Positions 5,300 to 63,886 are shown, numbered from the stretch's first letter. The stretch is 64,000 nt of DNA from an uncultured Chloroflexia bacterium (GCA_963778955.1 CAVZWI010000001.1:285582-349581), one strand, 5' to 3'. A program made the numbers and translations. Notes: generated by a model from the letters alone, not told the origin.

Positions 5300-5864
5300 C
5301 TACCGCGCCACCCGGTAGCGGTGGAGGACGACCCTCGAGCCGACGGTGCGGGTCTCGACGAGGTCGAGGTCCACGCGGCGCTCGCGCTGAGGAAAGAACG
5401 GGGTGCCGCCGCCGACCAGCACCGGATGGACCATGGTCTGGTACTCGTCGATCAGATCCGACGCGGCCGCCTCGGCGGCCAGCGTCGCACCGCCGATGGC
5501 GATGTCGCCATCCCCTGGCTCGGCTCGCAGCCGCGCGATCTCCTCCGCCAGGCCGCCGCAGAGCAAGCGGGCATTGCCCTGCACGGCGGACAGCGTGGTG
5601 GAGAAGACCACCTTGGGAAGCGGCTTCCAGAGCGCAGCCCACTCGCGCTCCGGATCGTCGAGCGACCGATCCTGATCGGCCGTCTCCCAGTACAGCATCG
5701 TCTCGTATAGCCGCCGCCCCAACAGGTGGACGCCGATGGTCCGGATCTCGTCGATCCAGAAATCGGAAGACATCCTCGTCGGGCACCGTCCAGTCGAAGC
5801 CGCCGTCCGGTCCGACGATGTAGCCATCAAGTGAGACACCCATCGAATAGGTCACGCTGCGCAT
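5300..5864 (-). pseudogene. Dihydrofolate-reductase-like protein (RibD C-terminal domain family), frameshifted as sequenced
   Basis: The N-terminus MRSVTYSMGVSLDGYIVGPDGGFDWTVPDEDVF lies in one frame. The continuation WIDEIRTIGVHLLGRRLYE lies in another. A 1-bp indel near 5759, beside GGATCG, explains the split. Confidence 0.65.
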
Positions 5865-5926
5865 CGGAACTCCTGCTCGGGAACGGTTCGACAGTATGAC
5901 CGGATGGCCAGATCCTCCGAGATCCC

Positions 5927-6115
5927 CTATGGATGATGGCCGGCCAGGTCGTGCTCATCCTCGCGTTCATCTGGTGCATCCGGCACCAGGTCGCCACTCC
6001 CCTTCCCTGGGGCACGTTGCTCGCCATGGTCGGGCCTTGCGTCCTCCCGACCCTTGGGGTCGGACATCGGTCCCTCGACCTGTCCCCGAGCCACCTGATA
6101 TGGATCATCCTTCAT
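5927..6115 (-). CDS. Candidate small hydrophilic protein (62 aa)
   Basis: The ORF is preceded by a plausible RBS (aaggga). No similarity was recognised. Confidence 0.2.
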   Translation of the reverse strand: MKDDPYQVARGQVEGPMSDPKGREDARPDHGEQRAPGKGSGDLVPDAPDEREDEHDLAGHHP

Positions 6116-6163
6116 GACAGAGTCCCTTCATCGTAAACACGTGCCCTTGGATGACGCGCCGTC

Positions 6164-6374
6164 TCAGCGCGGCCGGACACGAACCTCAACCTGGTGCGGG
6201 TCCGTCGTGGACCAGCGCACGCCGACCACCTCGTAGTCAGCGTCCTCGTGCTCGATGACGTCGCCCGTCCGCGGCATCGCCTCCGGCCAGGGCCACTTGC
6301 CAAACGAGTCGGCAGGATCGAGCCTCCAAGGTGAACTCCACGATCATCGGCGAGACTTCCAGGACTTCCTTCAC
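6164..6374 (-). CDS. Candidate small protein of about 69 aa, recovered after correcting a 1-bp indel
   Basis: AGGAGG sits 5 nt upstream of a GTG start. MKEVLEVSPMIVEFTLEA joins to ...DSFGKWPWPEAMPRTGDVIEHEDADYEVVGVRWSTTDPHQVEVRVRPR if the g in ctc[g]atcc near 6319 is removed. Confidence 0.35.
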
Positions 6375-7843: not shown

Positions 7844-8625
7844 GCCCTCAGTATGCCGTGCCCCATCGACACCGAATGTGGGCCGGGCGCTACTCGTCGG
7901 GTAGCGACATGAACGAGCCGTCCGGCAGGTAGCCATCGCGGGTGCGCTGCCGATTCGCGCCGCGCCCGGCCGGGCTTCACACGCGGCCCGACGGCCACGA
8001 CGTAGGCGACGCGACTGCCGATCGCGACACCGGTGTCGGCGCGCGGCCAGGTCCGGAGCACGTGCCCTTCGGGGACCTTGTCCGAACGACGGGTGCCGCG
8101 GCGCTCGGCCGCCAGGCCCATGGCACGAAGCATCGTCGTTGCTTCCGATTCGTCGCGGCCGCGCAGGTCGGGGACCATGACATGGGGCCGCCCGCCGATC
8201 TCGATGGCGATGACACCGCCGGCAACGACTTCCACCCCCGGCTGCGGCTCCTGGCTCAACACCTGACCCCACAGATCCTCACGAGCCGGCTGTTCCTGGA
8301 CCTCGATGTGCAGGCCGGCAAGACGGGCCACTCGCCGCGCGTCTGAGGTGGACATACCCACCAGGTCGGGCGCCGAGACCGGCCCCTGCGGTTCTGGCGT
8401 CGTGGCCGGCACCGACGGGTCCGCCTTGGAGGCCCCCGCCGGAGTCGCAAATGCGTCGCTCGGTGGAACACCGGCATCGTCCACGAGACCTGCGGGGTCG
8501 CCTGGCTGATAGACGGACAGGGGCGAAAGCCCGCCATCGACGGTGGGAGGGTTGCGCCGCATGAGCCTGCGTCCTCGGTGAGTCGTGACAGCGCCCCCGT
8601 TCGGCCCGACTTGGCCCCGACTCAT
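7819..8625 (-). CDS. PASTA-domain protein (two PASTA repeats, no kinase or transmembrane domain visible)
   Basis: Two PASTA-like repeats are present (VPDLVGMSTSDARRVARLAGLHIEV.. and VMVPDLRGRDESEATTMLRAMGL..). The start is ambiguous (8625 or 8562). Confidence 0.5.
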   Translation of the reverse strand: MSRGQVGPNGGAVTTHRGRRLMRRNPPTVDGGLSPLSVYQPGDPAGLVDDAGVPPSDAFATPAGASKADPSVPATTPEPQGPVSAPDLVGMSTSDARRVARLAGLHIEVQEQPAREDLWGQVLSQEPQPGVEVVAGGVIAIEIGGRPHVMVPDLRGRDESEATTMLRAMGLAAERRGTRRSDKVPEGHVLRTWPRADTGVAIGSRVAYVVAVGPRVKPGRARRESAAHPRWLPAGRLVHVATRRVAPGPHSVSMGHGILRACAPRSPF

Positions 8626-8649
8626 GAGCGCCGCGAAGGCGATTCTTGC

Positions 8650-8760: not shown

Positions 8761-9062
8761 TCGGGGTGCGCATTCCGGCCGCCGTGGGCCCTGAGCGCTA
8801 CCACGCCGGTGAGGGCTCGGCCGATGGCGACGGATCGTGCGGATGTGGCCGTTACGTACGGCCCGCCCGACCCGAATACTGCGGACATGACGGTGACAGA
8901 GTGGGTCGCTGAGTCTGTCCCTTCCAGGGTCGTCCGCGGACCCCACGCGGACGACCCACCGTTCTGCCTCCGTCGGGCCGTCGCAGACGGATGCGAAGAG
9001 CGCCACTGGCCACAGCGTTTCGGAACGATCCGGTACACCTGATGTCGTAGGTCTGGATTCTG

Positions 9063-9449
9063 ATGGCCGCACATCGGCTCGCGCGCCGGCACCGACTGCG
9101 CCTGTCGGTCTCGGTCTGGGAGACCAAGATCGGACCGTGGGGCATGGTCCTGTCGCAGCAGCCTGGGGGCGGCAGACCACGGTCTGGAGCGTGCATCCAT
9201 GTGGTCGTCGCCGCTCGACCCCATCTCGCCATCCCCGATGTCGGAGGGCTCGAAGCGGGCAAGGCCATGCGAGCGCTGCGGCGTTTCGGCCTGCTGCCGA
9301 CTCGCGTCGAGGGTCGAGCCTCGCGTACGGTTCCCGCTGGTCACGTCATCGCGACACAGCCACGCGCCGGCACGCTTGTCGTGGACGGCGAACGCGTGAC
9401 GGTGACGATCTCTCGCGCGCGGTCCTCGCGCTCGCCGCTCGCGCGGTGA
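9063..9449 (+). CDS. PASTA-domain fragment (about 1.5 repeats), paralogous to 7819..8625 and possibly a remnant
   Basis: HLAIPDVGGLEAGKAMRALRRFGLLPTRVEGRASRTVPAGHVIATQPRAGTLVVDGERVTVTI is a PASTA fold. The preceding ...VLSQQP motif mirrors the minus-strand paralog. An in-frame stop lies 5 codons upstream of the ATG. Confidence 0.3.
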   Translation: MAAHRLARRHRLRLSVSVWETKIGPWGMVLSQQPGGGRPRSGACIHVVVAARPHLAIPDVGGLEAGKAMRALRRFGLLPTRVEGRASRTVPAGHVIATQPRAGTLVVDGERVTVTISRARSSRSPLAR

Positions 9450-9780: not shown

Positions 9781-11314
9781 ATGGATGTTGGTTCCGCTGG
9801 TATGAACTCGGAGACGGAAGTCGGCCAACGCGTTCCCGCGAGCACCCCACCCCGGTCACGGCTTGGCGCCCGCCTGCTGCTCGGCATCGCCGTGGCCGTC
9901 GTGGCGGGCGTCGTCGCGGCGTGGCTGACACCGCGCGGACCAGTCACGACCACGGACACCGCAGGCTGGACGGTGGGGGCCGTGCTGGTAGGCCTGGCCT
10001 GCGGCCTCATCCTGGGCTCCCGCTGGGCTGTGCTCGTCGCACCGATCGCCTTCGGTGTGGCCTTCGAGATCGCTCGCCTGGGCACCGATGGGCCCACCGT
10101 CGATACCGTCCACCTTGGTTCGACCTACGGCCTCATCGCCTTCGTCGTCGGGCGCGGCCTCAGCTTCATCCTGCTGGTGCCGGCGATGATGCTCGGCGGC
10201 GTCATCGGCGTGGAGATCGCCGCCCGCACGGGCCGGCCGCGAGCTCGCAGGCTGCATATCGCTGGCTGGCTGGGAGTGGCGGTGCTGGTGCTGGCGGTGG
10301 TCGGACTGCAGGCGGCCTTCCTGCGACCTGCCACGATCGCGCCCATCCTGGGCTCCGACGGCGAGCCGTTGCCGGGCGCGGTGGCGGAGCTCACGAGCGT
10401 CGAGCTGGGCGGCCACGAGCAGGCCCTCATCGATCCGGGGCCGCAGCGACCAGAACCCGGTGCTCCTTCACCTCGCGGGTGGTCCCGGCGGCACGGACAT
10501 CGGTGCCATGCGCGCCGATACCTCGCTCGAGGACGACTTCGTGGTCGTCACCTGGGATCAGCGCGGCACGGGCAAGTCCTACGGCGCCATCGATCCGGTC
10601 GAGACCCTCACACCGCAGCAGATGGTCGACGACACCATCGAGCTCAGCGAGTACCTTCGCGACCGCTTCGACGAGGACGCCATCTACCTGCACGGCCAGT
10701 CATGGGGCTCACTCCTTGGCGTGCTGGCAGTCCAGCAGCGACCGGACCTGTATCACGCCTGGATCGGCAGCGGCCAGATGGTCAGCCCGGTCGAAACGGA
10801 CACGATGTTCTGGGAGGACACCATCGCATGGGCCGAGTCGATCGGCGACGATGCACTGGCAGCCAGCCTGCGTGAGAGCGGCCCGCCGCCCTACCAGGAC
10901 ATCCTGGCCTACGAGCCTGCGCTGTCACATGAGCACGACTGGAACCCCTACCCGGAATTCGACGGCGACAAGGAGATGCCCTTCAACCTCTTCGTGCCCG
11001 AGAACACGCTGATGGACCAGTTCAACGGACTGCGCGCCTTCCTCGACACCTTCTCCGTGCTCTATCCGCAGTTGCAGGACATCGACTTCCGACGGGACGC
11101 GCCCACTCTGGATGTGCCGGTGTACCTGATCGTGGGGGCGCACGAGGCCCGCGGCCGGGCGGTCCTGACCGAGGAATGGTTCAAGGTGCTCGACGCGCCG
11201 GCCAAGGAACTCATCGCCTTTCCCCACTCCGGCCACCGTCCGACCTTCGAGGAGCCGGGCCGTTTTGCCGAGTTGATGGGGCGCGTGCGCGACGAGACGT
11301 ATCGCGAGGCCTGA
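9781..11314 (+). pseudogene. Membrane-anchored alpha/beta hydrolase (proline-iminopeptidase-like), frameshifted as sequenced
   Basis: N-terminal transmembrane helices are followed by ...ELTSVELGGHEQALI in frame 1. IRGRSDQNPVLLHLAGGPGG...GQSWGS...PHSGH continues in frame 2. Removing the g in atc[g]atcc near 10432 restores ...QALIIRGRSDQNPVLL. Confidence 0.7.
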
Positions 11315-16552: not shown

Positions 16553-19025
16553 ATGCGATACGGACGGTTCGATGACGAACGGCGCGAGTACGTCATCACG
16601 CGACCGGATACGCCGCTGCCCTGGATCAACTACCTGGGGACCGAGGACTACCTGGGCCTCATCTCCAACACCGCCGGCGGTTACTCGTTCTATCGCGATG
16701 CCCGCCTGCGCCGCCTGACGCGCTACCGCTACAACAACGCGCCCCTCGATGTCGGCGGCCGCTACCTGTACCTGCGTGACGACCTCACCGGCGACTACTG
16801 GAGTCCCAGCTGGCAGCCGGTCGGCGGGTTCGTCGAGGACTACGAGTGCCGCCACGGGCTGGGCTACACGGTCATCGGCTCGCGCAGCAACGGCATCCGC
16901 ACCGAGACGACGTACTTCGTGCCGCTGGGCGAGACGCTGGAGGTTTGGCGCACCCGCATCACCAACGAACGCGATACACCCGCGCGGTTGTCGCTCTTCA
17001 GCGCGGTCGAATGGAACCTCTGGGACGCCCTGGACGATGCCACCAACTTCCAGCGCAACTACTCGGTCGGCGAGGTGGAGGTCGAAGACGACGTCATCTA
17101 CCACAAGTCCGAGTACCGCGAACGCCGCGACCACTTCGCCTGGTTCGCATGTTCGGAGCCGTTGGCCGGGTTCGACACCCAGCGCGATGCCTTCCTGGGA
17201 CCCTACCGCGGCTGGGACCGACCGACCGTCGTGGAACAGGGCACGGCGACGGACTCGATGGCCCATGGCTGGCAGCCCATCGGCTGCCATCACGTGCGCC
17301 TGGAGCTGGCACCAGATGAGACGTACGAGGTCATCTTCGCCATGGGCTACGCGGAGAACCCCGCCGACGCCAAGTTCGACCCACCCGGTTCGCAGACGAT
17401 CGCCAAGCGCGGCGTGCGGCCGACCATCGAGCGCTACCTCCGCGCCGATCAGGTCGAACAGGCACTGGCGGCCCTGAGCGATCATTGGGATGAGTTGCTG
17501 GGCGCACTGCACGTGGCCACGCCCAACGAGCACCTCGACCGCATGGTCAACACCTGGAACGCCTACCAGTGCATGGTCACGTTCAACCTCTCGCGCTCGG
17601 CATCGATGTTCGAGTCGGGCATCGGCCGGGGCATGGGCTTCCGCGATTCCAACCAGGACCTGCTCGGGCTTCGTGCACATGGTTCCTGCGCGCGCCCGGC
17701 AGCGCATCCTCGACATCAGCGCCACGCAGCTGCCGAGCGGCGGCGCCTATCACCAGTACCAGCCGCTGACCAAACGCGGCAACGACGCGGTCGGCTCCGG
17801 CTTCAACGACGACCCGGCCTGGCTGGTGCTGGCTGTGGCGGCCTACATCCGCGAGACCGGCGACTGGTCCATCCTCGACGAGCCGGTCCCCTACGACAAC
17901 GTCGCGGGCTCGGAGACGCCGCTGTACGAGCACCTGCTTCGGGCGGTCGAGTACACGCTGGAGCGGCTCGGACCACACGGGCTGCCGCTCATCGGCCGCG
18001 CCGACTGGAACGACTGCCTCAACCTCAACTGCTTCAGCCAGACCCCTGGCGAGTCGTTCCAGACCACGGAGAACAAGGCAGGCGGCGTGGCCGAATCGGT
18101 CTTCATCGGCGCCCTCTTCACGCTGGCAGCACAGGAGATGGGGGCCCTGGCACGACGACGAGGCGACGACGCCGTGGCCGATCGTTGTGGGTCGGCCGCG
18201 TCGGAGATGGTAGCGGCCATGGATGCGCACGGCTGGGATGGTGCCTGGTTCCGTCGTGCCTACGACCACTTCGGCCATCCCGTCGGCTCGGCGCAGAACG
18301 AGGAGGGGCAGATCTTCATCGAGCCCCAGGGCATGGCCGTCATGGCCGGCATCGGCGTCGGGGATGGTCGGGCGGAGACCGCCCTCGCCTCAGTGCGCGA
18401 GCGGCTGGCTACCGACCACGGCATCGTGCTGCTGCAGCCGGCCTTCAGCCACTACTACCCCGAGTACGGCGAGATCAGCTCGTATCCCCCCGGCTACAAG
18501 GAGAACGCCGGGGTCTTCTGCCACACCAACCCCTGGCTGATGATCGCTGAAGCTCGACTCGGCAACGGCGACGGCGCGTTCGACTACTACCTGCGCATCA
18601 ATCCATCGGCCCGTGAAGACATCAGCGAGATCCACCGCTGCGAGCCATACGTGTACGCCCAGATGATCGCCGGACGGGACGCACCCACCCATGGCGAAGC
18701 CAAGAACTCCTGGCTCAGCGGCACGGCGGCCTGGAACTTCGTCGCCGCCACGCAGTGGATCCTGGGGATCCGCCCCGAGCACGATGGCCTGCGCGTCGAT
18801 CCGTGCATCCCGGCCGATTGGGCAGGGTTCAGCACCACGCGACGCTTCCGGGGCACGACGTACCGCATCCGGGTCAGCAAGCCGGTGGGGACGATCGGAC
18901 GCGTGCGTCGATTGGTCGTCGACGGTCGGGCCATCGATGGCAACATCGTCCCACTGCCGGTCCGGCGGGGTGGCACTATCGAGGTCGAAGCGATGGTCGA
19001 GAACATCGCCATGGGAGGATCGTGA
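16553..19025 (+). pseudogene. Cellobiose phosphorylase (GH94), frameshifted as sequenced
   Basis: The N-terminus MRYGRFDDERREYVITRPDTPLPWINYLG reads through to ...[17 protein letters not shown] in one frame. [38 protein letters not shown]...[27 protein letters not shown] follows in the next. The culprit is an extra g in cgg[g]ctt near 17667. Confidence 0.85.
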
Positions 19026-22632: not shown

Positions 22633-22947
22633 AGCCGCCGGGACGTGTCAGTTCCGTGTCGGGCTGCGGTCCGACGGGCCGCTCCCAAGGGCACCGCAAG
22701 GCAAACGCAATCCCACGGACGAGGGTGGCCGCGCCGCCGCAGCGCCAACCGTGCTGGAGTTGACGCATGCCACATCATGCGACGCGCGATTTGGGTGCCA
22801 GGGGTCGCATCGTCATCCGCGAGGGGCTCACGCGACAGTCGGGCGGATCGTTCGTGCACGACCTGCGATCCGCGATGAGGCACCTCGAGGTCGACCCGCT
22901 CAACTGGTCCATGCAGCGCTCCGGGTACCACCACTAGAGGCTGGGCC

Positions 22948-23481
22948 ATGTCCTTCTGGGAGCTGGACGTCGCGGCAGTCATGCGCACCGTGGTGCTCGG
23001 CGTCCTGGCCTACTTCGCGCTCGTCGCGATGCTGCGCGTATCGGGCAAGCGGACCCTCTCGCAGCTCAACGCGTTCGACCTCGTGGTGACCGTGGCGTTG
23101 GGCTCCACCCTTGCGACCGTCCTGCTCTCGGAGGAGGTTGGGTTGCTGCAGGGCATGGCGGCATTCCTGGTGCTGATCGTGCTGCAGTTCGTCATCACCT
23201 GGACCTCGCTTCGGTCGAAGACGGTCGCACGGCTGGCGAAATCGGAGCCTACCGTCCTGGTGTATCGCGGCGAGCTGCTGGGTCAGGCGTTGCGACGCGA
23301 ACGGCTGCTGCCGGCTGAGATCCGCGCGGCGCTTCGCGAGCATCGACTGGCCAGGATCGAGGAGGCCGATCTCGTCGTGCTGGAGACAGACGGGACGATC
23401 TCCGTGGTGCCACGGCTCGAAGCCGGCGCCGATCCACCGCCGGTGCTCGACCCGCTACTCGAGCAGACCGACCGCCAGTGA
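22948..23481 (+). CDS. DUF421 (YetF-like) membrane protein
   Basis: Two or three N-terminal transmembrane helices and the conserved C-terminal DUF421 region (LVLETDGTISVV) are present. Confidence 0.7.
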   Translation: MSFWELDVAAVMRTVVLGVLAYFALVAMLRVSGKRTLSQLNAFDLVVTVALGSTLATVLLSEEVGLLQGMAAFLVLIVLQFVITWTSLRSKTVARLAKSEPTVLVYRGELLGQALRRERLLPAEIRAALREHRLARIEEADLVVLETDGTISVVPRLEAGADPPPVLDPLLEQTDRQ

Positions 23482-27072: not shown

Positions 27073-28580
27073 CTACAGCCGATGTGAGATGGGCGCGACC
27101 GCCGGATAGACCTCACGATAGAGCTCGAAGAGCCGGGAATAGGCTGCGTGCCGCGCCGGATCGGGTTGGTAGATGTCGGTCAACTCCAGGAAGCGCTCGG
27201 CACCCTCGGCCGCGGACGGCCAGAGCCCGGCGCCCGTGCCCGCCAGCAATGCCGCGCCGAAGGCCGCGGCCTCCGTGATGCGCGGCGTGATGACTGGGAT
27301 GCCGGTGATGTCCGCCTTGAGTCGCAGCCAGAGCGGAGAGCGTGCACCCCCGCCGATGGCGCGCAAGACATCGATGGCCACACCGCCGTCACGGAGCAGG
27401 TCCAGGTTGAGCCGCAACTCGTAGGTGAGCCCCTCCAGGATGGCCTTGGCGATGTCGCCCCGAGTGGTCGAGAACGTCAACCCCAGGATGGCGCCCCGCG
27501 ACGCCGTGTCGAAGGTCGGCGTCCCGGCACCGGCGAAGTGGGGCAGGACCAGCAGACCGGTCGGTTCCGACGAGGCATCGGCGAGGATGACGTCGTATGC
27601 GTCCGCTCCGGAGGCAGACGCCCGAGACAGCTGCGGCTCGCAGAAGCCGTCGCGGAACCAGCGCAGCGCCAGGCCGCCGCTGTGATTGAGCGTCATGGCC
27701 AGGAACGACCCGGGCACGGTCGCACGGTAGACCGAGACGTTGCCCTCGTAGAGCGGCTCGGAGACGACCGGTGCGCCGAGCGCGACCTCCACCACCTCGG
27801 CGGTGCCGGTCGAGACCGAGGCCAAACCCGGGCGGGTAAGGCCGACGCCCAGCGCTCCACAAGCCTGGTCGTGACCACCGCTGACGACGCCGGGTGCCGA
27901 AGCCAGACCCAGTCGGTCGGCCAGGTCGGCCCGCATACGGCCTACCAGCGTGCCGGATGGCGCGACCTCCGCGAGCCGGTCGGGTGAAAGGTCCAGCGCG
28001 TCGAGGTATCTCCGGCGCCCAGCCGCCGGCCTCCAGGTCGTAGAGCTGGGTCCGCGAAGCCAGGCACTCACTGATGACGGCGCGGCCGGTCATGCGCGCG
28101 ATGAGGAAGTCCTCGACCAGCAGGAACCTGTGTGCCGCTGCCCAGACGTCGGGCTCGTGCTCCCTGAGCCAAAGCAGCTTGGGCAGCGTGTTGACGGTGT
28201 GGATGGGCATACCGGTGCGCTCGAACAACCGGCGCGCGCCGAAGCGGTCGCGCAGCCACGCGTTCTGCGCTTCGGTCCGGGTGTCCATGCCCAGGATGGT
28301 CGGCCGCAGCGGTCGCCCCTCGCCATCCACGGGCGTCACCGCCTCGCCGTGGACCGACAGCCCGATGGCGGCGACCTCACGCACCCCGGCCACGGCGATG
28401 GCCTCCGCCATCGACTCCATGGCCAACGCCCACACCTGCTCGATGTCCTGCTCCGCCCACGTCGGCCGCGGGAAGTCCACGGCGTACTCACGAGACGCAC
28501 TCGCGACCAGCACCCCGTCCTCGTCGAAGAGGACAGCCTTGCAGCCGGTGGTGCCGACGTCGAGCCCGATGAGGTTGGCC
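27073..28580 (-). pseudogene. FGGY-family carbohydrate kinase (xylulokinase-like), frameshifted as sequenced
   Basis: The N-terminus (GTG start) reads MANLIGLDVGTTGCKAVLFDEDG and runs to ...YDLEAGGWAPEI. The C-terminus LDALDLSPDRLAEV... lies in the next frame. An extra t near 28025 (gagg[t]atctcc; the true sequence GGATCTCC) explains the split. Confidence 0.8.
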
Positions 28581-28586
28581 ACCGAT

Positions 28587-39105: not shown

Positions 39106-39115
39106 CGTTCGCTGC

Positions 39116-44042: not shown

Positions 44043-45347
44043 TCAGGCGATCTCCACCGGAGGCGCGGTGGAGGCCTCGGCCAACACCTCGGCGGGAAGG
44101 AGTTCGCGGTCGGCCGACCGATCCCACACCGCGTCGGACCAGCGAGAGGCCACGAACGCCACGCTGCAGACGAGCACGCCGGCCACGGCGAAGGGCGTGA
44201 CCGAGCCATCGTAAGCCGCGTCGATCAGCGCGCCGATGATGGCACCACCGAGCGTGCTGATGGCTCCGATGATCGCCGCCGCGGTACCCGCGACGTGACC
44301 CATCGGCATCATCGCTGCCGAGTTCAGGTTGGGCATCACGAACGAGTGTGCCGTCAGGATCGGCAGCACCCCGAGCAGGTAGAGCCAGAACGGCGGGTGG
44401 CCACCGGTGGCGATCGCGATGGCCGCGAACAGCGTCGTGGCGGCCAGGTATCCGGTCAATGCGATGCGCACCATGCCGCGCAAGCCGAAGCGGTCGATCA
44501 GCCGCGGATTGAAGAGCATCGCCGTACCCAGCATCAGCGATGCCCCGCCGAAGACGACCGGAAACCAGGGGCCCAGGCCAAAGACGTCGTCGATGATGAG
44601 CTCGGTCGAGGCGAGATACGAGGCAAAGAACCCAAAGACCGCCATCTGTGCGATGGTGAAACCCATTGCGAAGCGGCTGCCGAGCACGACGCGCGCGGCG
44701 GTCAGCAAGCGGGAGAGGGAGAGCGGCAGGCGGCGCTCCGCCGGCAGCGTCTCCGGCAGGCGCCTGGCCCACAGACCGGCGCCGACGGCGGCGACGACGA
44801 AGAATGCGAAGATCCAGCGCCAGTTCCCTATGGCCAGCACGGCCGTACCCAGCGATGGCGCGATCATCGGCACCAACAGGAAGACGGCCATGATGTAGGA
44901 GAGCACCTTGGCCATCTGGTCGCCGCGGTAGCGGTCGCGGATCGTCCCCTGGGTCACGACGCGGATGGCGGCCGCGCCAAGACCTCCCACGAAACGCATC
45001 AGCAACAGGATCGACAGCGATGGCGAGAGGGCAGCGCCCAGCGCTGCCAGCGAGTAGATGGCGAGACCCATCCAGAGGATGCGTTTGCGCCCCAGCGCGT
45101 CGGACAGCGGACCCCAGAACAGCTGGCCCGAGCCGAAGCCGATGAGGAACACGGTGATGACCGGCGCGATGGCGGTCGAATTGGGCTCCAGCCCAAAGCT
45201 CGAGCGCATCTCGCCGAAGGCCGGCAGCATCATGTCGATGGCCAGGGCGGTCAGCGCCATGAGCATGGAGATGAGCACGATGAACTCGCGCTTGCCCATC
45301 TCGCCGACTCGTTGGCGGGCCGCAGGCTCGTGGTTAGATGTGGTCAT
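44043..45347 (-). CDS. MFS transporter (Bcr/CflA drug-resistance subfamily)
   Basis: Twelve transmembrane segments and MFS motifs are present (GPLSDALGRKR). Confidence 0.8.
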   Translation of the reverse strand: MTTSNHEPAARQRVGEMGKREFIVLISMLMALTALAIDMMLPAFGEMRSSFGLEPNSTAIAPVITVFLIGFGSGQLFWGPLSDALGRKRILWMGLAIYSLAALGAALSPSLSILLLMRFVGGLGAAAIRVVTQGTIRDRYRGDQMAKVLSYIMAVFLLVPMIAPSLGTAVLAIGNWRWIFAFFVVAAVGAGLWARRLPETLPAERRLPLSLSRLLTAARVVLGSRFAMGFTIAQMAVFGFFASYLASTELIIDDVFGLGPWFPVVFGGASLMLGTAMLFNPRLIDRFGLRGMVRIALTGYLAATTLFAAIAIATGGHPPFWLYLLGVLPILTAHSFVMPNLNSAAMMPMGHVAGTAAAIIGAISTLGGAIIGALIDAAYDGSVTPFAVAGVLVCSVAFVASRWSDAVWDRSADRELLPAEVLAEASTAPPVEIA

Positions 45348-45371: not shown

Positions 45372-46068
45372 TCAGCCCAGGTCAAGCGGTATACCGACCG
45401 AGCGACGCGCGGCGCGCGCCACCCGCAGGAAGTTGGCAACGTGGGCGACCGGCCGAGATGTGGCTTCCGGCGTCGTCATAGATGGTGGGGATGGGCACCC
45501 AGTCGATGGTCAGGCCGGCACGGACCGCGTCGGTGATCATCTCCACCTCGAACTCGAAACCAACCTCGCGGCTTTCGAGCAGGTGCCCCAGCAACGGCTG
45601 GGCGATGAGCCGGTAGCCCGATTGGTTGTCCGCGATGCGGCGGCCGACAGCCCAGCTGAAGACCCGCGTGCCGAGCACATTGGCCACTCGGCGGGAGAGC
45701 GGCATGCGGCTGAAATCACGGCGCCCGATGACCAGCGGCGCCCCGCTGGCGTGCCAACGCGCCAGGAAGTCGGGAACGCAGGCCGGGTCGTGCTGGCCGT
45801 CCGCGTCGAGCGTCAGCACCGCCGCGACGCCGTCGTCGAGGGCACGGCGGAAGCCGTATCGGAGTGCCGCACCCTTGCCCTGGTTGGGCCTCTGTCGCAG
45901 CACCTTGGCCCCAGCCGCCGCGGCTACCACAGCCGTGTCATCGGTGGAGCCGTCATCGACCACCAGCACCGGCAGGTGCTCCGCGGTCGCGCGCACGACC
46001 ACATCGAGCGTCGCCGCCGCCTGGTAGGCAGGGATGACCGCGATGACGTCAGTGGCTCGGGAACCCAT
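45372..46068 (-). pseudogene. GT2-family glycosyltransferase (polyprenol-phosphate glycosyltransferase-like), frameshifted near the C-terminus
   Basis: The GT2 core reads VIPAYQAAATL...VDDGSTDDT...LDADGQHDP. The C-terminus switches frame at about 45448 (...GSHI | RPVAHVANFLRVARAARRS...). Confidence 0.7.
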
Positions 46069-46143: not shown

Positions 46144-47873
46144 CGCTCAGTCGATCATGATGGCGTCGGGTGCGGGAACGCCGGTCGGCGTGGTCGCCCG
46201 CGAGGCCGGCAGCCGCCGGTTGAGGGCGAACTCGCGCATGGCCGTGGCACCCGAGAGGTTGTAGACATCCTTGAAGCCGTGCTGTGCGAGGATGCGCGTG
46301 CCCAGGTAGGAGCGCATCCCGGAGCGACAGGCCACGATCGTCGGCTTCGCGGATCAAGCTCACCAATCCGGTCACGCAACTGGTCAAGCGGGATGTTGAC
46401 GACGTCGTCGCAGTCGGCCAGCGGCAGCGCCACGACCTCGAACGGCTCGCGCACATCCACCGTCTGGTACGGGCACAGGTCGACATCGGGCTGCACAACG
46501 CGGGCAAGCCCGGCGAGGTGGTTCTCCGCGGCGAATGCGGCCATGTGCAGCGGATCCTTGGCCGAGCCGAAGGGTGGCGCATAGGCCAGGTCCAGCTCGG
46601 CCAGGTCGTGCACGTCGCCGCCGAAGTGCGTCAGGGTGGCGATGATGTCCAGGCGCTTGTCGACGCCGTCACCGCCACAGGCCTGCACGCCGAGGACCTT
46701 GCCGCTGCCCTCCTCGAAGACGAGCTTCAGGGCCATGGCCTGGGCGCCAGGGTAGTAACCGGCATGGTGGTTGGCGATGACGTGGACGGCGTTGGCGTCG
46801 AAGCCGGCGTCGCGCGCAGCGCGCAACGAAAGGCCGGTGATGCCGGCGGTCGTGCCGAAGACGCGCACGATGGACGTGCCCCAGACCGACGGCGCCGGAC
46901 GGGACGAGCCCGTGGCCGCGTGTTCACCGGCCAGTCGACCGCTGCGGTTGGCGGGTCCGGCGAGCGGCACCCGCATCTTGGCGCCGGTCGGACCGAAGGT
47001 GTATTCGGCCGCATCACCGACCGCATAGATGTCCGGGTCGTTGGTGCGCATGAACTCATCGGTGGCGATGCCACGACCGGCACCCAGCACCAGGCCGGCG
47101 TCCTCGGCCAGCTTGACGTTGGGGCGGACGCCGACGCCGAGCAGGATCAGATCGGCAGGCAGGCGCGTGCCATCGGCCAGCACCGCGGCGATGGCCCGCC
47201 CATCGCGCTCCTCGATCGAGGCGATGCCGTTGCCAAGCTCAAGACGCACGCCGTTGTACTCCAGTTGGCGGTGTAGCGGCTCGACCATCTCACGGTCCAG
47301 GAAGGGCATCACCTGCGGCTGCATCTCGACCAGGGCCACCTCAAGGCCCTTGCGCCGGAACTGCTCGACCGTCTCAAGGCCCACGTAACCGCCGCCGATG
47401 ACGACCACCTGACGGGCCTCGGGCATGGCCGCGGCGATGTGGTCGCAGTCCTCCAGATTGCGCAGCGTGAAGACGCCTTCCGAGTCGACGCCCGGGATCG
47501 GCGGCACCAGTGAATCGGCACCCGGAGCCAGGATCAGCTTGTCGTAGGCCTCGCTGTAAGTACGGCCGGCGTCAAGGTCCGAGACGGTGATGGTCTTGGC
47601 TTCACGATCGATGGACACGACCTCATTGCGCGTGCGTACCTCGATGTGGAAACGGCGCTTGAACAACTCGGGCTTGGCGACCAGCAGCTTGTCGCGGTCG
47701 CTGATCTCACCACCCAGGTAGTAGGGCAGGCCGCAGTTGGCGAACGAGACATAGGAGTCCCGCTCGAAGATGATGATGCGTGCGTCCTCGTTCATACGGC
47801 GGGCGCGGGCAGCAGCAGAGGCGCCACCAGCCACACCACCGACGATGAGGATGGTCGGGGCAGAGTCGGTCAC
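46144..47873 (-). pseudogene. CoA-disulfide reductase / NADH-oxidase-family flavoprotein with a C-terminal rhodanese domain, frameshifted as sequenced
   Basis: The FAD motif ILIVGGVAGGASAA follows a GTG start. The rhodanese domain is split as ...GELDP | AKPTIVACRSGMRSYLG by a 1-bp deletion near 46350, next to GGATC. Confidence 0.8.
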
Positions 47874-48109
47874 GGTCGGTCTCCGGTTCGGAGGGATGAT
47901 GAGTTGTTGCCGTTGATACTGAGTCTCAGCATGCGGGATGGCATCGGCCGCGTGTCCCCGAATCGGTGAGCCATGCGGACCCTTGCTTCGGACGGACGTT
48001 GAGGACACGGTGCCGTGTCGGCGTGCAACCATGACCGCGAGACGGTATGGCCCACAGGTCGCCGGCTGAAGCTCGTCGGTCGCAAAGCGTCAAAGAGGGA
48101 ACGCGTGTG

Positions 48110-49079: not shown

Positions 49080-49680
49080 ATGGACGTCGGCGCCGTCATC
49101 TTCGTCTATGGCCTGCTGGCCCTCGTGGGCATCGTGGCCCTGTTCTGGCTGGGCCTGATGTTCGTGGCCTCGCACCTGTCCGAGCCGGTCGACCAGAGCT
49201 TCAGCCGACTCCGTCGGCGGCTCAGCCCATTGGCCATCACTGGCGCCTGGGCCGCAGCCACGTTGGCGATGGCCGGCAGCCTGTACTTCAGTGAGATCGC
49301 GCACTACACACCGTGCACCCTGTGCTGGTACCAACGCATCGCGATGTACCCATTGGTGCTGATCCTCGCCATCGCCGCGATCCGCCGGGACATCGGCATC
49401 CGGCGCTACGCCATCCCGTTGGCGGCGGTGGGCGCAGTCGATCTCCAGCTATCACTACTTGCTGGAGTGGTTCCCGCAGATCGATACCGGCGCCTGCACC
49501 GTGGGCATCCCCTGCACGCAGGTCTGGTTCCGCGAGTTCGGATTCGTCAGCCTGCCGCTGCTGGCACTCGTTGCGTTCGGGCTTGTCATCGCGCTACTGC
49601 TCATCCCGCCGCGCAAGCCCGCTCCCGATGAGCTTGCTCCCGATGAGCTCGCCGCTGATGACGAGACGCCAGCGAGCTGA
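49080..49680 (+). pseudogene. Disulfide bond formation protein B (DsbB/BdbC family), frameshifted as sequenced
   Basis: CTLCWYQR lies in the first frame. ...ISSYHYLLEWFPQIDTGACTVGIPCTQVWFREFGF lies in the next. The culprit is an extra g at gtc[g]atctcc, about 49450. Confidence 0.75.
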
Positions 49681-58751: not shown

Positions 58752-58908
58752 GATCGGGCGGAAAGCAGTGCGTCCATCGATACCGAGTCTCAGGCTCCGA
58801 GATCAGCCTCCCGGCCCGTCCGCGTAAAGGCGGTGTAATCGCCTGGCCGTCGTGCCTACGCTTATGTCACGTACCCGACGGGCACATCCACCCACGAGGC
58901 AACCCCCG

Positions 58909-60307
58909 ATGAGTCATCAGCCAGCGCCGTTCACCCATCCATACATCCCCAACTCGGAGCCGCGACAGCGCAAAGCGATGCTCGACGAACTCGGCGCCGC
59001 CGCGATCGACGACCTGTACGCTGCCATCCCGGCGCACCTGCGCCTCACGCGGCCCCTGGACATGCCTGCTCCCCTCTCGTCCGAGATGGAGCTGCGGCGC
59101 CACGTCGGTGGCCGCATCGACCGCAACACGTCCACCCGGCAGCTGGTCAGCTTCCTCGGCGCCGGCTGCTATGACCACCAGGTGCCGGCCGTGTGCGACG
59201 AGGTCAATGGCCGCGCCGAGTTCCTGACCGCATATGCCGGCGACCCCTACGAGGACCACGGGCGCTTCCAGACGCTCTTCGAGTTCGCCTCGATGATGGG
59301 CGAGCTGCTGGAGATGGACGTCGTCAGCGTCCCCACCAACGACGGCCACCAGGCAGCCGCGACGGCCCTGCGCATGGCGGCTCGGGTGACCGGGCGAGGT
59401 CGCCTGCTCGATCAACGACTCCATCGGTCGCGACAAGCTCAGCCGGATCACCGACTACTGCGCGCCTGGCCTGGAGATCGTCCCACTGCCCTCCGATCGA
59501 AGCGGCGGGGTGGACATCGATGCGCTCAGGCACCTGCTGGACGACTCGGTCGCGGCGGTGCACCTCGATCAACCGTCGTTCTTCGGCGTGGTGGAGACCC
59601 GTGGTGCCGAGATCGTTCGCCTGGCTCACGAGACCGGGGCACTCGCGGTGGTCTCGGTCGACCCCTCCACCCTCGGGGTGCTCGCGCCACCGGCGAGCTG
59701 GGGTGCGGACATCGTGGCCGGTGACATCCAGCCGCTGGGGATCCACCAGCAGTTCGGCGGCGGGCACGGGGGTTTCATCGCCTCGGCCGATGACCCGCGG
59801 CTGGTGATGGAGTACCCCACGCGCCTGTTCGGCCTGGCCCGGACGTCGGTGCCGGGCGAGTACGGCTTCGGTGACGTGGCCTATGAGCGCACCTCGTTCG
59901 CGGTGCGCGAGGAGGGCAAGGAGTGGGTCGGCACCGCCGCCGGCCTGTGGGGCATCACCGCCGGCGTCTATCTCGCCCTGATGGGCCCACAGGGCATGAC
60001 CGAGCTGGGCGAAGCGATGATGGCTCGAACGCGCTACGCGATGGAGCGCATGGCCCAATTGCCGGGCGTACGGATCCCCTTCGCCGACAGCCATCACGTG
60101 AAGGAGTTCGTGGTGGACTTCGACACCACCGGACGGACCGTGGCTGCCATCGACGCAGGTCTGCTGGAGCGCGGGTACCTGGGTGGGGCCGACCTGTCGG
60201 GAACGTTCCCCGACCTCGGACAGAGCGCCCTGTACGCGGTCACCGAAGTGCGCAGCCAGGCAGAGATCGATGGGCTCGTCGAGGCCCTCGGGGAGGTGCT
60301 CTCATGA
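58909..60307 (+). pseudogene. gcvPA: Glycine dehydrogenase (decarboxylating) subunit 1, frameshifted as sequenced
   Basis: MSHQPAPFTHPYIPNSEPRQRKAMLDELG runs to ...AARVTGRGRLL. INDSIGRDKLSRITDYCAPGLEIV... follows in the next frame. The culprit is an extra g at ctc[g]atcaac, about 59410. Confidence 0.8.
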
Positions 60308-61938
60308 CGACGGACCGTACCGACGCCATCGGCCCCAAGCCCAGCCCACGCCGCTTCCACCAGGCGCGCTGGGATGAGCCCATCATCTTCGCGCACTCGG
60401 TGCCGGGGGCCAGGGGCGTGCTCATCCCGACGGTCGAGGACGGCATCCGAGAGATGGTCGGTAGCCCGGCTGACGACCTTCCTGCCGGAGTGCGACGGAC
60501 GACTCCGCCCGCCTTGCCGGAGATGGCGCAGGTCAACGTCCTGCGTCACTACACGCGGCTCAGCCAGGAGACGCTGGGCGTGGACGTCAACATCGACGTC
60601 GGCCAGGGCACCTGCACCATGAAGTACTCGCCCAAGATCAACGAGAGCTTCGCCCGCGACCCGCGCATCGCCGACCTGCATCCGCTGCAGGACGGATCGA
60701 CGGTGCAGGGCGCGCTCGAGATCATGTGGCACCTGGAGCGACTGCTGTGCGAGGTCAGCGGCATGGACCGCGTGACCCTGCAGCCGCCGTCCGGCTCGGC
60801 CGCCATCTGGACGAACGTCAGCATGATCCGCGCCTATCACGCAGCCCGCGGTGAGGGAGAGCAGCGGAACGAGGTCATCACCACCGCCTTCTCCCACCCC
60901 TCCAACGCCGCCTGCGCCCGCACCGCCGGTTACACCATCATCACCTTGCAGCCCGACCCGATCAGTGGCCGGCCCACGCTGGAGGCACTGAAGACGGCGG
61001 TCTCGGAGCGGACGGCGGCACTGCTCATCACCAATCCCGAGGACACCGGCATCTATAACGACCAGATCGACGAGTTCGTGCGTGTCGTCCACGCGGTCGG
61101 CGGCCTGGCCTGTTACGACCAGGCCAATGCCAACGGTATCCTCGGCGTCACGCGCGCCCGCGAGGCCGGCTTCGACCTGTGCCACTTCAACCTGCACAAG
61201 ACGTTCTCCACCCCGCATGGCTGTGGCGGCCCCGGCGCGGGCGCCTGTGGCGTGACCGAGGCCCTGACCCCGTTCCTGCCATCGCCGACCGTGGAGCGTG
61301 GCGGCGGGCGTTTCTGGCTGGACCACGACCGTCCGCGCTCGATCGGCAAGGTGCAGCCGTGGTACGGATCGGCGCCCAACCATGTCCGCGCCTACGCCTG
61401 GATCATGAGCCTGGGGGCGGTCGGCCTGCGGCAGGTCGCCGAGACCGCCGTCCTCAACAACAACTACCTGATGCAGCGGGTGCTCGCGATCCGCGGTGTC
61501 TCGGCACCCTATGCCCAGGGCCGACGTCGCATCGAGCAGGTCCGCTACAGCTGGCAGCAGCTGGCCGATGACACTGATGTCCACATCGATCACCTCAGCG
61601 CCCGACTGAACGACCACGGCGCCCACTTCTGGTCCAGCCATCATCCCTTCGTGGTGCCCGAGCCGATGACTCTGGAGCCGACCGAGGCCTACTCACGGGC
61701 TGACCTCGACGAACACGCGGCCATGCTGGACGCGGTGGCTGAGGAGGCGTACGCCGACCCCGATACCGTCCGTTCCGCTCCGCATCGTTCGACCATCCAC
61801 CGGATCGATCACGCCTGGCTGGACGACCCTGAGCGGTGGGCAGTGACCTGGCGCGCTTACCTGCGCAAGCACGGTGGGCCGATGGACGCATCCCCGGATG
61901 ACCCGATGGACGCATCGACGGACGGACCGACGGGCTGA
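60304..61938 (+). CDS. gcvPB: Glycine dehydrogenase (decarboxylating) subunit 2
   Basis: The ATG overlaps the gcvPA stop (ATGA). ...CHFNLHKTFSTPHGCGGPGAG is the PLP-lysine region. Confidence 0.85.
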   Translation: MTTDRTDAIGPKPSPRRFHQARWDEPIIFAHSVPGARGVLIPTVEDGIREMVGSPADDLPAGVRRTTPPALPEMAQVNVLRHYTRLSQETLGVDVNIDVGQGTCTMKYSPKINESFARDPRIADLHPLQDGSTVQGALEIMWHLERLLCEVSGMDRVTLQPPSGSAAIWTNVSMIRAYHAARGEGEQRNEVITTAFSHPSNAACARTAGYTIITLQPDPISGRPTLEALKTAVSERTAALLITNPEDTGIYNDQIDEFVRVVHAVGGLACYDQANANGILGVTRAREAGFDLCHFNLHKTFSTPHGCGGPGAGACGVTEALTPFLPSPTVERGGGRFWLDHDRPRSIGKVQPWYGSAPNHVRAYAWIMSLGAVGLRQVAETAVLNNNYLMQRVLAIRGVSAPYAQGRRRIEQVRYSWQQLADDTDVHIDHLSARLNDHGAHFWSSHHPFVVPEPMTLEPTEAYSRADLDEHAAMLDAVAEEAYADPDTVRSAPHRSTIHRIDHAWLDDPERWAVTWRAYLRKHGGPMDASPDDPMDASTDGPTG

Positions 61939-63095
61939 TGCCGGACCGGCCGACCCATGGCGTTCCACGGCTGGGGCTGCTCGTGAACCCCATCGCCGGC
62001 CTGGGCGGACGCGTAGGCTTGAAGGGCACCGATGGGGCCGGCATGGCGGAACGCGCGCGGCAGCTGGGCGCCGTACCCCGAGCGACGGCCCGTGCGGCCA
62101 CCGCGCTGCGGCGGCTGGCCCAGACGTGGCCGACAGGACAGGCGCCTCCGATGCTCATCTGCGGTGTCGGGAGGATGGGGGCCACGGCAGCTGTGGGTGC
62201 CGGCTGGCCGCACCAGGCCCTGGGTGAACTTCGCGCCAAGACCACGGCCGATGACACACGATGGCTGGCGGCCGGACTGGCAGAGACGGTGGACCTGCTG
62301 CTATTCGCCGGCGGCGACGGCACGGCCCGCGACATCTGCGAGACCGTCGGTGACCAGCTGCCGGTCCTCGGCATCCCTGCCGGGGTGAAGATCCAATCGG
62401 CCGTGTTCGCCACCAGCCCCGGTGCCGCGGGCGAGGTGGCGTCCCACTACCTCGCCACGAGCGCACGCCGCACGCTGGAACGCGAGGTCCTGGACCTTGA
62501 CGAGGAGGCCTATCGAGCCGGCGACGTGCGGCCGCGGCTCCACGGATCCATGCGCGTCCCACAGGGCCGGCGCTTGCAGGCGCGCAAGAGCGCTGCTCCG
62601 GCTGGTGAGGCGTCGGCCCTGGCCTCGATCGCGGCCGAGATCGAGTCGCTGCTGCAGCCCGACCGGCGCTACATCCTGGGTCCCGGCACCACCACGCGCG
62701 CGCTGGCACGGCGGCTGGGGCTCGCCAAGACGCTGGTCGGGGTCGACGCCTTCCTCGTCGCGGCCGATGGGCCGCGACTGCTGGCCCGCGACGCGGCAGA
62801 GGCTGACCTGCGGACCATCGTGCGCGACGGTCCCACCGCCATCATCGTCACGCCCATCGGCGGCCAGGGCTTCCTCTTCGGTCGCGGCAACCAACCCATC
62901 TCGCCCGAGGTCATCCGCGCGGTCGGCCGTGAGGGCATCCTCGTGCTGGCCACGCCGGGCAAGCTGGCCGAGCTGGCCGGACGGCCGCTCCTGGTCGACA
63001 CCGGCGATGAGACGCTGGATCAGCGATTGGCGGGGCATCTCCGCGTCATCAGCGGGCGTGGCGAGCGTGCCATCGTCCGGGTCGAACCGGCATGA
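61938..63095 (+). CDS. ATP-NAD kinase family protein
   Basis: The GGDGT motif is present (LLLFAGGDGTARDI). Confidence 0.65.
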   Translation: MPDRPTHGVPRLGLLVNPIAGLGGRVGLKGTDGAGMAERARQLGAVPRATARAATALRRLAQTWPTGQAPPMLICGVGRMGATAAVGAGWPHQALGELRAKTTADDTRWLAAGLAETVDLLLFAGGDGTARDICETVGDQLPVLGIPAGVKIQSAVFATSPGAAGEVASHYLATSARRTLEREVLDLDEEAYRAGDVRPRLHGSMRVPQGRRLQARKSAAPAGEASALASIAAEIESLLQPDRRYILGPGTTTRALARRLGLAKTLVGVDAFLVAADGPRLLARDAAEADLRTIVRDGPTAIIVTPIGGQGFLFGRGNQPISPEVIRAVGREGILVLATPGKLAELAGRPLLVDTGDETLDQRLAGHLRVISGRGERAIVRVEPA

Positions 63096-63129
63096 GAGCC
63101 GGCATGAGAGTCGCCATGAGAGGAGAGAC

Positions 63130-63886
63130 ATGAGGATCGAAGACAAGCGCGCGCTCGTGACCGGCGCCGCGTCGGGCATGGGCAGGGCGATCGCGGAGCT
63201 GCTGGCGACCGAGGGTGCTGCCGTCGTGCTGGCTGACATCGACGCCGAGGCAGTCGAGCGGGTCGTGACCGGCATCGTCGCCTCGGGAGGCCGCGCGCTC
63301 GCCATCGGCTGTGATGTCGCCAGCAGCCCCGATGTGCAGCGCGCGGTGGACACGGCCGTGGCAGGCTTCGGGGGCCTGGACATCGTGGTCAACTGCGCCG
63401 GCATCATCCGCCGCGCCAGCGTCGTCGACACCACGCAAGGCGAGTGGATCGCGTCATGGCCGTCAACGTCGGCTCGGTCTTCCTGGCCGGCAAGCACGCC
63501 ATCCCGGCCATGGCCGCCGGCGGTGGTGGCTCCATCGTCAACATCAGCTCCGGCTGGGGCCTGAAGGGTGGTCCCGACGCCGCCAGCTACTGCGCTTCCA
63601 AGGCTGCCGTGGTCAACCTCACCCGCGCCATGGCCATCGACCACGGGCCGCAGGGCATCCGCGTCAACTGCATCTGCCCAGGGGACACCGACACGCCCAT
63701 GCTGCGTTCAGAAGCCCAGCAGCTGGGTCTCGATGAAGCGACGTTCCTCCGGGACTCCGCCGATCGCCCCCTGAGGCGCCTGGGCACCCCGCTGGACATC
63801 GCCGCAGCCGTCCTGTACCTGGTCTCCGATGATTCGGCCTGGGTGACCGGTTCGAATCCTCGTCGTCGACGGCGGCGGGCTGGCAT
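63130..63886 (+). pseudogene. SDR-family oxidoreductase (3-oxoacyl-ACP-reductase-like), two 1-bp frameshifts as sequenced
   Basis: The N-terminus reads MRIEDKRALVTGAASGMGRAIA...NCAGI. There are shifts at about 63447 (..QGEW|DRVMAVNVGSVFL..) and at about 63857. The second restores the canonical C-terminus ...VTGSNLVVDGGGLA*. Confidence 0.8.

Follow-up and report, generated by a model that had tools for sequence, protein, structure and literature searches.

Single-base frameshifts in a soil Chloroflexota genome are very probably long-read consensus errors, mostly at GATC

The window analysed here (the whole stretch of 64,000 nucleotides, GCA_963778955.1, CAVZWI010000001.1:285582-349581) contains many conserved genes whose reading frame is broken by one extra or one missing base. 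Has this organism lost the functions of these genes, or is the deposited sequence wrong at these points? The window comes from a Chloroflexota soil bacterium, Limnocylindria-like.

Inventory of the shifts

By three-frame translations, nucleotide alignments to orthologous loci and tblastn, at least 16 single-base shifts were found in 14 of about 61 genes of the window, so that about 23% of the gene set carries a shift. The first-pass annotation had listed 13 shifts of 1 bp, and the same three approaches recovered all of them, each within 20 nt of the position given. The exact sites differ in the first FGGY kinase (28007, not 28025), the SIS gene (39091/39092, not 39088), the GT2 gene (45456, not 45448) and the DsbB gene (49439/49440, not 49450). 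Its count of 13 conserved genes has to be corrected, as its own list holds 12 genes with 13 indels, and the rule of exactly one indel per gene fails for the SDR and for the 184-aa PASTA-domain gene (PASTA184). Three shifts are additional to that list, all in two PASTA-domain genes (7953, 9059/9060 and somewhere in 8880-8990). The events are as follows.

3605, no strand: intergenic 1-bp insertion, GCT[C]GATCG, from alignment to L013; the region is divergent and the assignment to the window is less certain
5760-5762, minus strand: +1, one extra A in AAA (TTT), RibD_C-like gene (about 5300-5864)
6320, minus strand: +1 (+G on the plus strand; minus strand GGCT[C]GATCC), gene of 69 aa with function unassigned (about 6164-6373)
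7953, minus strand: +1 (+A), CCG[A]TTCG, C-terminus of the 217-aa PASTA-domain gene (about 7893-8562), away from GATC
8880-8990, plus strand: probable +1, base not pinpointed, variable linker of PASTA184 (about 8824-9449)
9059/9060, plus strand: +1 (+T) within GATC, GGAT[T]CTGATGG, PASTA184
10431, plus strand: +C, CAT[C]GATCC, membrane-anchored alpha/beta hydrolase gene (9787-11314)
17666, plus strand: +G, CTC[G]GGCTT (GG to GGG), GH94 cellobiose phosphorylase gene (16553-19025), away from GATC
28007, minus strand: +1 within GATC (+T on the plus strand; minus strand GGAGAT[A]CCTC), first FGGY kinase gene (27073-28582)
39091/39092, minus strand: +1 directly before GATC (+T; minus strand CAGC[A]AGATCC), codon 11 or 12 of the SIS-domain gene (38496-39123)
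43308/43309, minus strand: 1-bp deletion directly before GATC (minus strand GCGT-GATCC versus GCGTGGATCC), second FGGY kinase gene (42362 to about 43905)
45456, minus strand: +1 (+A; minus strand CACATC[T]CGG), GT2 glycosyltransferase gene (45372-46068), away from GATC
46350/46351, minus strand: 1-bp deletion 2 nt past GATCC (minus strand GATCCG-CGAA), CoA-disulfide-reductase/rhodanese fusion gene (46147-47879)
49439/49440, plus strand: +1 giving GT[C]GATCTCC, DsbB-like gene (49080-49680)
59409-59411, plus strand: +1 giving GCT[C]GATCAAC, gcvPA (58909-60307)
63445/63446, plus strand: 1-bp deletion before GGATC (AGT-GGATCGC versus AATGGGATCGC), SDR gene (63130-63888), in which a second shift follows
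63855, plus strand: +A within GATC, TCG[A]ATCCTC, second shift of the SDR gene, 10 codons ahead of the stop

The frameshift-aware comparison called for by the first-pass annotation was run as tblastn with intact orthologous proteins, and gave abutting HSPs in two frames. The fragments of each gene are contiguous parts of one orthologue, with 76-100% amino-acid identity, and, judged from the sequence, this split-gene pattern is far beyond chance. The hydrolase query matches with residues 1-224 in frame 1 and 216-508 in frame 2 (alignment and repaired ORF agree), the cellobiose phosphorylase with 1-372 in frame 2 and 372-816 in frame 3 (backed by alignment), the first FGGY kinase with 1-192 and 193-502 in two frames and gcvPA with 1-167 in frame 1 and 168-464 in frame 2, the alignment agreeing for both. 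After the second SDR shift, residues 243-252 are back in frame 1 at 100% identity, again in agreement with the alignment. In the GT2 gene the shift lies about 26 codons short of the gene end.

Some sites rest on other evidence. At 5760-5762 three-frame translation shows the protein carrying on in two frames, and the placement within the run follows from protein sense, as orthologous DNA was not to hand; a GGATC lies at a distance of 4-6 nt. The shift at 6320 is based on alignment to two related loci (L013 and L014), on orthologue residues 19-69, which are in a single frame from 6319, and on the repaired ORF. At 7953, residues 1-197 of the orthologue match in frame -2 and 191-217 in frame -3 by tblastn. 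In PASTA184 frame 1 encodes the conserved N-terminus (MATDRADVAV...) and frame 2 the following conserved block, SERSGTPDVVGL; in frame 2 a start codon was sought and none was found before 9137; the first shift would therefore lie between them. The second takes frame 2 to frame 3 between ...PDVVGLD and MAAHRLARRHRLRLSVSVWETK.

Intact orthologues, repair and selection

Wherever orthologous DNA exists, the nucleotide alignments show the indels to be private to the window, and none of the window-specific indels was present in the fetched orthologues, the short-read MAG included. Orthologues are intact in this MAG (GCA_038251965.1) and in Logan short-read assemblies of the same sample (SRR19962010), and the identical tblastn test gave 0 shifts in the short-read comparators. 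The MAG, at about 87% nucleotide identity, is the nearest clean comparator but represents another species, and the evidence on each indel is accordingly indirect. Intact orthologues have 473/508 aa for the hydrolase, 818 aa for the cellobiose phosphorylase, 502 aa for the first FGGY kinase, 213/202 aa for the SIS-domain protein and 465 aa for gcvPA.

Could the genes be functional as written, with ribosomal frameshifting or transcriptional slippage restoring the frame? The one point in favour of such programmed recoding is that the downstream frames are intact. However, the shifts are of both signs (+1 and -1), and neither a shared slippery heptamer nor a long A/T run was found at the shift sites, where runs do not exceed 3 nt. 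The orthologues of all relatives are single-frame at the shift positions, which in effect refutes recoding, and we consider its probability to be practically nil.

At 14 sites, none of them in PASTA184, a one-base correction (a base taken out or put in) restored uninterrupted ORFs of orthologue length. As the first-pass annotation had it, the genes show no additional damage: internal stops, larger deletions and further lesions were looked for and none was seen, the lesions being solely 1-bp indels and the repaired ORFs free of stops. In ten repaired proteins scanned, covering 11 shifts, Pfam family matches span the junctions. The C-terminal fragment of the RibD_C-like protein alone covers positions 38-197 of the family, and the repaired protein 2-197 of 197. 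The repaired second FGGY kinase crosses its junction within FGGY_N (1-242/245), and the fusion gene carries Pyr_redox_2 and Rhodanese in a single ORF. Similar matches are found for DsbB (9-146/148), gcvPA (GDC-P, 3-428/429) and the SDR with both shifts mended (adh_short_C2, 1-234/236). The repaired SIS-domain protein has 208 aa and matches the SIS family, in agreement with the alignment, and the 217-aa PASTA-domain protein, whose family is confirmed by Pfam, ends in ...RARRERQRTRDGYLPDGSFMSLPDE as its orthologue does.

Relaxed selection downstream of the shifts was sought by dN/dS against the short-read MAG and not found: the ratio is 0.10 downstream (1745 codons) versus 0.19 upstream (1964 codons), so the downstream constraint is at least as strong as the upstream one. 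Genuine recent pseudogenisation, a rapid inactivation (by a hypermutator or a population bottleneck, for example) with one hit per gene so far, would likewise leave dN/dS unaltered if the events were very recent; the indels are present in the sequence as deposited and the comparators are all from other species. On the other hand, this process would have produced 16 hits in 14 genes with no stop, larger deletion or second lesion type among them, would have struck gcvPA, the sugar kinases and DsbB, and does not account for at least one like event in intergenic DNA (3605), a position showing that events of the GATC type also occur outside genes. We regard it as very unlikely, all the more so as the identical motif-specific event is found in other Nanopore MAGs and not in short-read ones.

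The GATC context and its recurrence

Of 14 tested sites, 10 have a GATC at a distance of 2 nt or less (71%), versus 6.4% expected (binomial P about 9e-10; the motif was spotted in the data and then tested, and correction of this post hoc choice for 256 tetramers leaves P about 1e-7). A fifteenth site, 9059, is also inside a GATC. The commonest type is TGATC to TCGATC, with five events in the window. Four of the 15 localised shifts are away from GATC (7953, 17666, 45456 and, more loosely, 5760), and the longest homopolymer run at any shift site is 3 nt. The errors are thus mostly linked to the motif, often as GGATC, and are neither random nor of the classic long-homopolymer type.

These exceptions, together with non-GATC errors in three related loci (L005, L007 and L010), would fit a generic random long-read error at low coverage, in which indels fall at GATC simply because the tetramer is abundant (401 copies in the window, 2.1x the mononucleotide expectation). 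But the 6.4% null already takes this abundance into account, and the change of TGATC to TCGATC occurs at least 10 times over the window and four related loci. Random error as the only cause is decidedly unlikely.

The four loci (L002, L005, L007 and L010) belong to three Nanopore-only MAGs, and in the short-read MAG the change is absent. At one orthologous position of the GT2 gene, GAGAT[C]GATCAC, the extra C is present in L002, L007 and L010 and absent from the window, L001, L003 and L004. L002 is closest to L003, a clean short-read locus (88.9% identity; L007 81.7%, L010 75.6%), so the insertion is recurrent rather than inherited. In L005, which shares a bin with L010, the event is GATC[G]ATG at a different position. 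The related Nanopore-only MAGs also carry private shifts of their own, with 0, 1, 3, 3 and 7 shifts per locus by tblastn, and a spread as wide as this is expected for depth-dependent error. Disruption of relatives at different positions had been proposed as a sign of true decay; it fails as such here, as the disrupted relatives are Nanopore-only assemblies and the relative assembled from short reads shows no shifts.

The strong enrichment of indels at GATC could also be expected if the motif were a real mutational target, cut or nicked by a restriction or MutH-like nuclease and closed by error-prone end joining with 1-bp scars. Such mutagenesis needs an independent origin in several species and an identical +C at one orthologous site, is never seen in the short-read MAG and would have a large fitness cost, with no decay after the lesions according to dN/dS; it is extremely improbable. 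The related reading, that genes of the window were inactivated in a very recent burst by one hit each, through nuclease action at (G)GATC and error-prone repair, is highly improbable as well. A so-far undescribed Nanopore basecalling or polishing failure at a modified motif, affecting many deposited soil MAGs, is a much more likely source of the TGATC to TCGATC change than real GATC-directed mutagenesis.

Origin of the errors and comparison with known systems

We therefore hold with high confidence that a long-read assembly introduced the frameshifts as consensus errors, mostly systematic at GATC, and that the real genes are intact. The first-pass view of indel errors rather than pseudogenisation is supported by the private indels, the clean short-read orthologues, the kept constraint, the motif link and its recurrence. 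A 1.75-Mb contig carries the gcvPB of the window with 100% identity. A contig of this length out of soil points to long reads. From this contig, and from relatives that are MFD Nanopore MAGs, we infer a long-read origin, and the source assembly is very probably a Nanopore-only MAG. MFD MAGs were obtained from Nanopore R10.4.1 reads only, with Flye and one round of Medaka (PMC12313526). If the window shares this origin, the first-pass description of the assembly as unpolished probably does not hold to the letter.

As for the likely mechanism, a modification of GATC or its signal context would be poorly handled by the basecalling and polishing models, and at modest read depth the wrong call would win the consensus. 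Nanopore bins under about 40x still require short-read polishing (PMC9262707), and in R10.4.1-only assemblies error-prone sites coincide with modification motifs, GATC among them (PMC11610603). The errors are probably motif- or modification-linked, and their pattern may reflect a modification of GATC or GGATC in these Chloroflexota. The methylation step is not established here, since the methylation-linked errors described for Nanopore data are mostly substitutions (purine/purine or pyrimidine/pyrimidine) rather than indels (PMC11610573).

The frameshifts are almost certainly no biological feature. Cellobiose phosphorylase, the two FGGY kinases, gcvPA, DsbB and the remaining affected genes should be counted as intact in this organism. 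Otherwise about 23% of the genes here would be called truncated, split or pseudogenes, and uncorrected shifts inflate gene counts and pseudogene estimates and break pathway reconstruction, a caution for users of this genome and of related long-read-only MAGs. The strong association with GATC and the repeated change of TGATC to TCGATC suggest a systematic error that is correctable; a motif-aware or frameshift-aware polisher could mend the errors at GATC.

Reductive genome decay, of the kind seen in Mycobacterium leprae or in recently host-restricted pathogens, leaves many pseudogenes. Its lesions are mixed (stops, deletions and IS insertions, with more than one hit in a gene), and constraint is relaxed. 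The window resembles such decay in the high share of genes with a broken reading frame, but has neither the mixed lesions nor the relaxed constraint. Indel-induced gene truncation in long-read-only assemblies is what the IDEEL test measures, and reportedly was the subject of earlier work by Watson and Warr (2019). It has been described for Nanopore MAGs (PMC9262707), and the window agrees with it in the single-base indels that split intact genes into two ORFs, in the depth-dependent density and in the clean short-read relatives, whereas the classic form occurs at long homopolymers and the window has runs of 1-3 nt, with the GATC context dominant. Modification-linked Nanopore errors (PMC11610603; PMC11610573) differ in being mainly A/G or C/T substitutions, while the window was scored for indels only, its substitutions not being callable because the relatives are too divergent; they share with the window the short motif, the recurrence in independent samples and the survival of polishing.

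Comparison loci and composition

The window has a GC content of 68% throughout and contains about 61 genes of ordinary metabolism and transport. GATC is found in 401 copies over its whole length, 2.1x the mononucleotide expectation, while CTAG has 21 copies only. With the intact 434-aa protein encoded at 44043-45347 as query and one genome scanned per species, syntenic loci were found at 83-89% nucleotide identity. Most of these loci (L001, L002, L004-L008 and L010) belong to 'uncultured Chloroflexia' MAGs with MFD sample names, and one is from a MAG labelled Candidatus Limnocylindrales (GCA_038251965.1; JBBSAV01; La6_metabat2.046). We infer the latter to be a short-read assembly, since its contig names are of the k-mer/coverage style and the same proteins occur in Logan assemblies of SRR19962010. 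The MFD genomes are based on Nanopore R10.4.1 reads only, assembled with Flye and polished by one round of Medaka (PMC12313526). A copy of the window gcvPB with 100% identity is found on a contig of 1,746,884 bp (NCBI, ENA).

After protein searches and exact look-ups for further pieces, 48.5 kb of the window were aligned to GCA_038251965.1. The short-read pieces are L003, L013, L016 and L017, plus the Logan contigs L014 and L018; L015 and L019 are further MFD pieces.

Frame interruptions in the window

Three-frame translation of each claimed site recovered the 13 single-base shifts reported by the first-pass annotation, with the second frame continuing a sensible protein. The 13 indels of that list fall in 12 genes rather than the 13 stated, and its sites, although real, were displaced by up to 18 nt. 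In nucleotide alignments covering the reported sites 6319, 10432, 17667, 28025, 39088, 43310, 45448, 46350, 49450, 59410, 63447 and 63857, a single-base indel private to the window was found at every site with orthologous DNA. When intact orthologous proteins served as tblastn queries, the hydrolase, GH94, the first FGGY kinase and gcvPA each aligned as abutting HSPs that fall in two frames; the SDR was recovered in three HSP pieces. Orthologous DNA is lacking for the RibD_C site; here the profile is matched by the C-terminal fragment on its own over positions 38-197 only, and the match extends over 2-197 of 197 once one base of an AAA run is removed.

An all-against-all six-frame tblastn census was dropped as too noisy, since at 68% GC long ORFs in non-coding frames also align, and shifts were counted instead with GC3-filtered ORFs and the called genes of the short-read MAG as queries. 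A strict multiple-alignment singleton caller, which misses sites close to other gaps, was kept as supporting evidence only. Pairwise indels against the short-read MAG and tblastn revealed shifts in two neighbouring genes:

about 7893-8562, minus strand: 217-aa PASTA-domain gene
about 8824-9449, plus strand: 184-aa PASTA-domain gene

The first has a +1 insertion at 7953, and its conserved C-terminus is regained by repair at this base. The second requires two +1 shifts, one at 9059/60, inside a GATC, and the other somewhere in the variable linker 8880-8990. All three were missed in the first pass. Altogether, at least 16 shifts affect 14 of the approximately 61 genes, a density of about one per 4 kb.

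One-base repair at each of 14 sites gave uninterrupted ORFs of orthologue length, with Pfam matches spanning the junctions. Zero stops and zero extra lesions were left after repair, in line with the initial claim that the genes carry no additional lesions. The short-read MAG has intact orthologues of the hydrolase (473/508 aa), FGGY kinase (502 aa), SIS protein (213 aa), GcvPA (465 aa) and SDR (252 aa). Against this MAG, dN/dS is 0.10 downstream of the shifts (1745 codons) and 0.19 upstream (1964 codons), and the affected genes show no decay. Programmed recoding, by which the frames would be restored during expression, is excluded, as the orthologues carry no shift and the sites lack slippery sequences.

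Most other candidates were rejected. The ORFs at 3-506 and 427-1290 are not one split gene, but the end of an ABC ATPase and a separate radical SAM gene; ApbE, the FMN_bind gene, ferric reductase, the MobA-like gene, LtrA and the PALP gene appear to be complete, and the other suspicious frame changes are ordinary gene boundaries or intact genes. A YetF-like ORF (22879-23481, plus strand) covers just positions 2-71 of DUF421, a domain of 129 positions, and stops so close to the convergent mannitol dehydrogenase gene that no room is left for a continuation; either a truncation or merely a divergent C-terminus may account for this.

Some repeats were also observed. The N-terminus of the SIS protein (about 39090-39125) has a variable copy number of a unit of ~15 nt encoding M-D-D-Q-Q, with one copy in the window, L005 and L007 and extra partial or full copies in L001-L003; the 39091 frameshift lies at the end of this repeat. 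Tandem CCGGCATGAGAG copies, absent from the short-read relative, are found between the NAD kinase and SDR genes (63079-63110). At 40366-40442, in intergenic DNA upstream of the gene for the sugar-binding regulator, the 16-nt context AGGTCATCTGGGATAG occurs twice, about 60 nt apart, which suggests a direct repeat.

Association of the shifts with GATC

In the sequence as written or as repaired, 10 of the 14 tested shifts are no more than 2 nt away from a GATC, against 6.4% of random positions (binomial P about 9e-10).

Window events by their relation to GATC
TGATC changed to TCGATC: 10431, 49440, 59410, 6320 (opposite strand) and intergenic 3605
Extra base inside GATC: 28007, 63855 and 9059
One base gained or lost directly beside GATC: 39091, 43308, 63445 and 46350
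Not at GATC: 7953, 17666, 45456 and, more loosely, 5760

By our own count, 9 of 11 GATC-linked sites have GGATC on one strand, compared with about 39% among all GATC, which only hints at a motif longer than GATC. The four shifts away from GATC resemble the usual consensus errors that arise at short runs or at random. Classic homopolymer error was rejected as the main cause, the runs at the sites having just 1-3 nt. At 28584, the window also differs by 1 bp from the short-read relative at a GATC (TAGATCGGTG); the position lies in the spacer of 3-4 nt that separates the URO-D stop from the FGGY start, and the start in the window would be GTG instead of ATG.

Recurrence in Nanopore assemblies and origin of the shifts

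At one orthologous GT2 position, the MFD loci L002, L007 and L010 have GAGATCGATCAC, while the window, L001, L003 and L004 have GAGATGATCAC. The identical +C, GAGAT[C]GATCAC, is at about 9781 in L002, 9827 in L007 and 9670 in L010 (window equivalent about 45539), and in all three the 50 codons downstream remain conserved when read in the shifted frame. These loci are not mutually closest relatives: L002 has 88.9% identity with the clean short-read L003, its closest, 81.7% with L007 and 75.6% with L010. Since L002 is nearest to a clean locus, the +C arose independently and was not inherited. Further private insertions of this kind were found in L005 at 4091 (GATC[G]ATG), away from the GT2 site, and in L007 (GGATC[G]ATCG), orthologous to window about 50614. 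The same tblastn shift test found no shift in the short-read MAG and Logan contigs.

In the related Nanopore loci, the shifts number 0 (L001, L019), 1 (L002), 3 (L005, L007) and 7 (L010), a spread that does not follow relatedness and is expected for a depth-dependent consensus error. In L019, the mannitol dehydrogenase (17656-18910) is divided into two gene calls (231 and 194 aa), while the short-read MAG has a single 426-aa gene; this is probably another frameshift, and the junction was not found at the one position tried. The contigs of L005 and L010, both from MFD09964.bin.2.79, are homologous copies of one region with only 82.6% identity, and L010 has its 7 shifts within 3.2 kb of aligned coding sequence, which points to a mixed bin or to a contig of very low coverage.

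The private indels, the lack of decay, the link to GATC, the recurrence in Nanopore MAGs and the uneven counts all favor the initial reading of the lesions as errors and not pseudogenes, and we are highly confident that the frameshifts are an artefact of the assembly and not a feature of the organism. Genuine recent pseudogenisation is very improbable, and mutagenesis directed at GATC in this lineage even more so. In both cases, identical events would have had to happen in several species and yet never appear in short-read data, along with a burst of single hits, without any other lesion type, and the inactivation of about a quarter of the genes.

In the best-supported account of the artefact, basecalling and polishing would have miscalled the signal around GATC in this organism, with a read depth insufficient for the correct call to prevail; DNA modification is the presumed cause of the miscalls. 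In Nanopore R10.4 bins below about 40x, polishing is still required against fragmented gene calls (PMC9262707). The added value is technical only, consisting of a sharply motif-specific error signature usable to flag and repair such genomes.

Published methylation-linked Nanopore errors are mainly substitutions (PMC11610573), whereas the window was scored for indels only, since a divergence of about 13% of sites from the nearest relative makes substitutions impossible to score. In R10.4.1-only assemblies, error-prone sites coincide with modification motifs, including GATC (PMC11610603).
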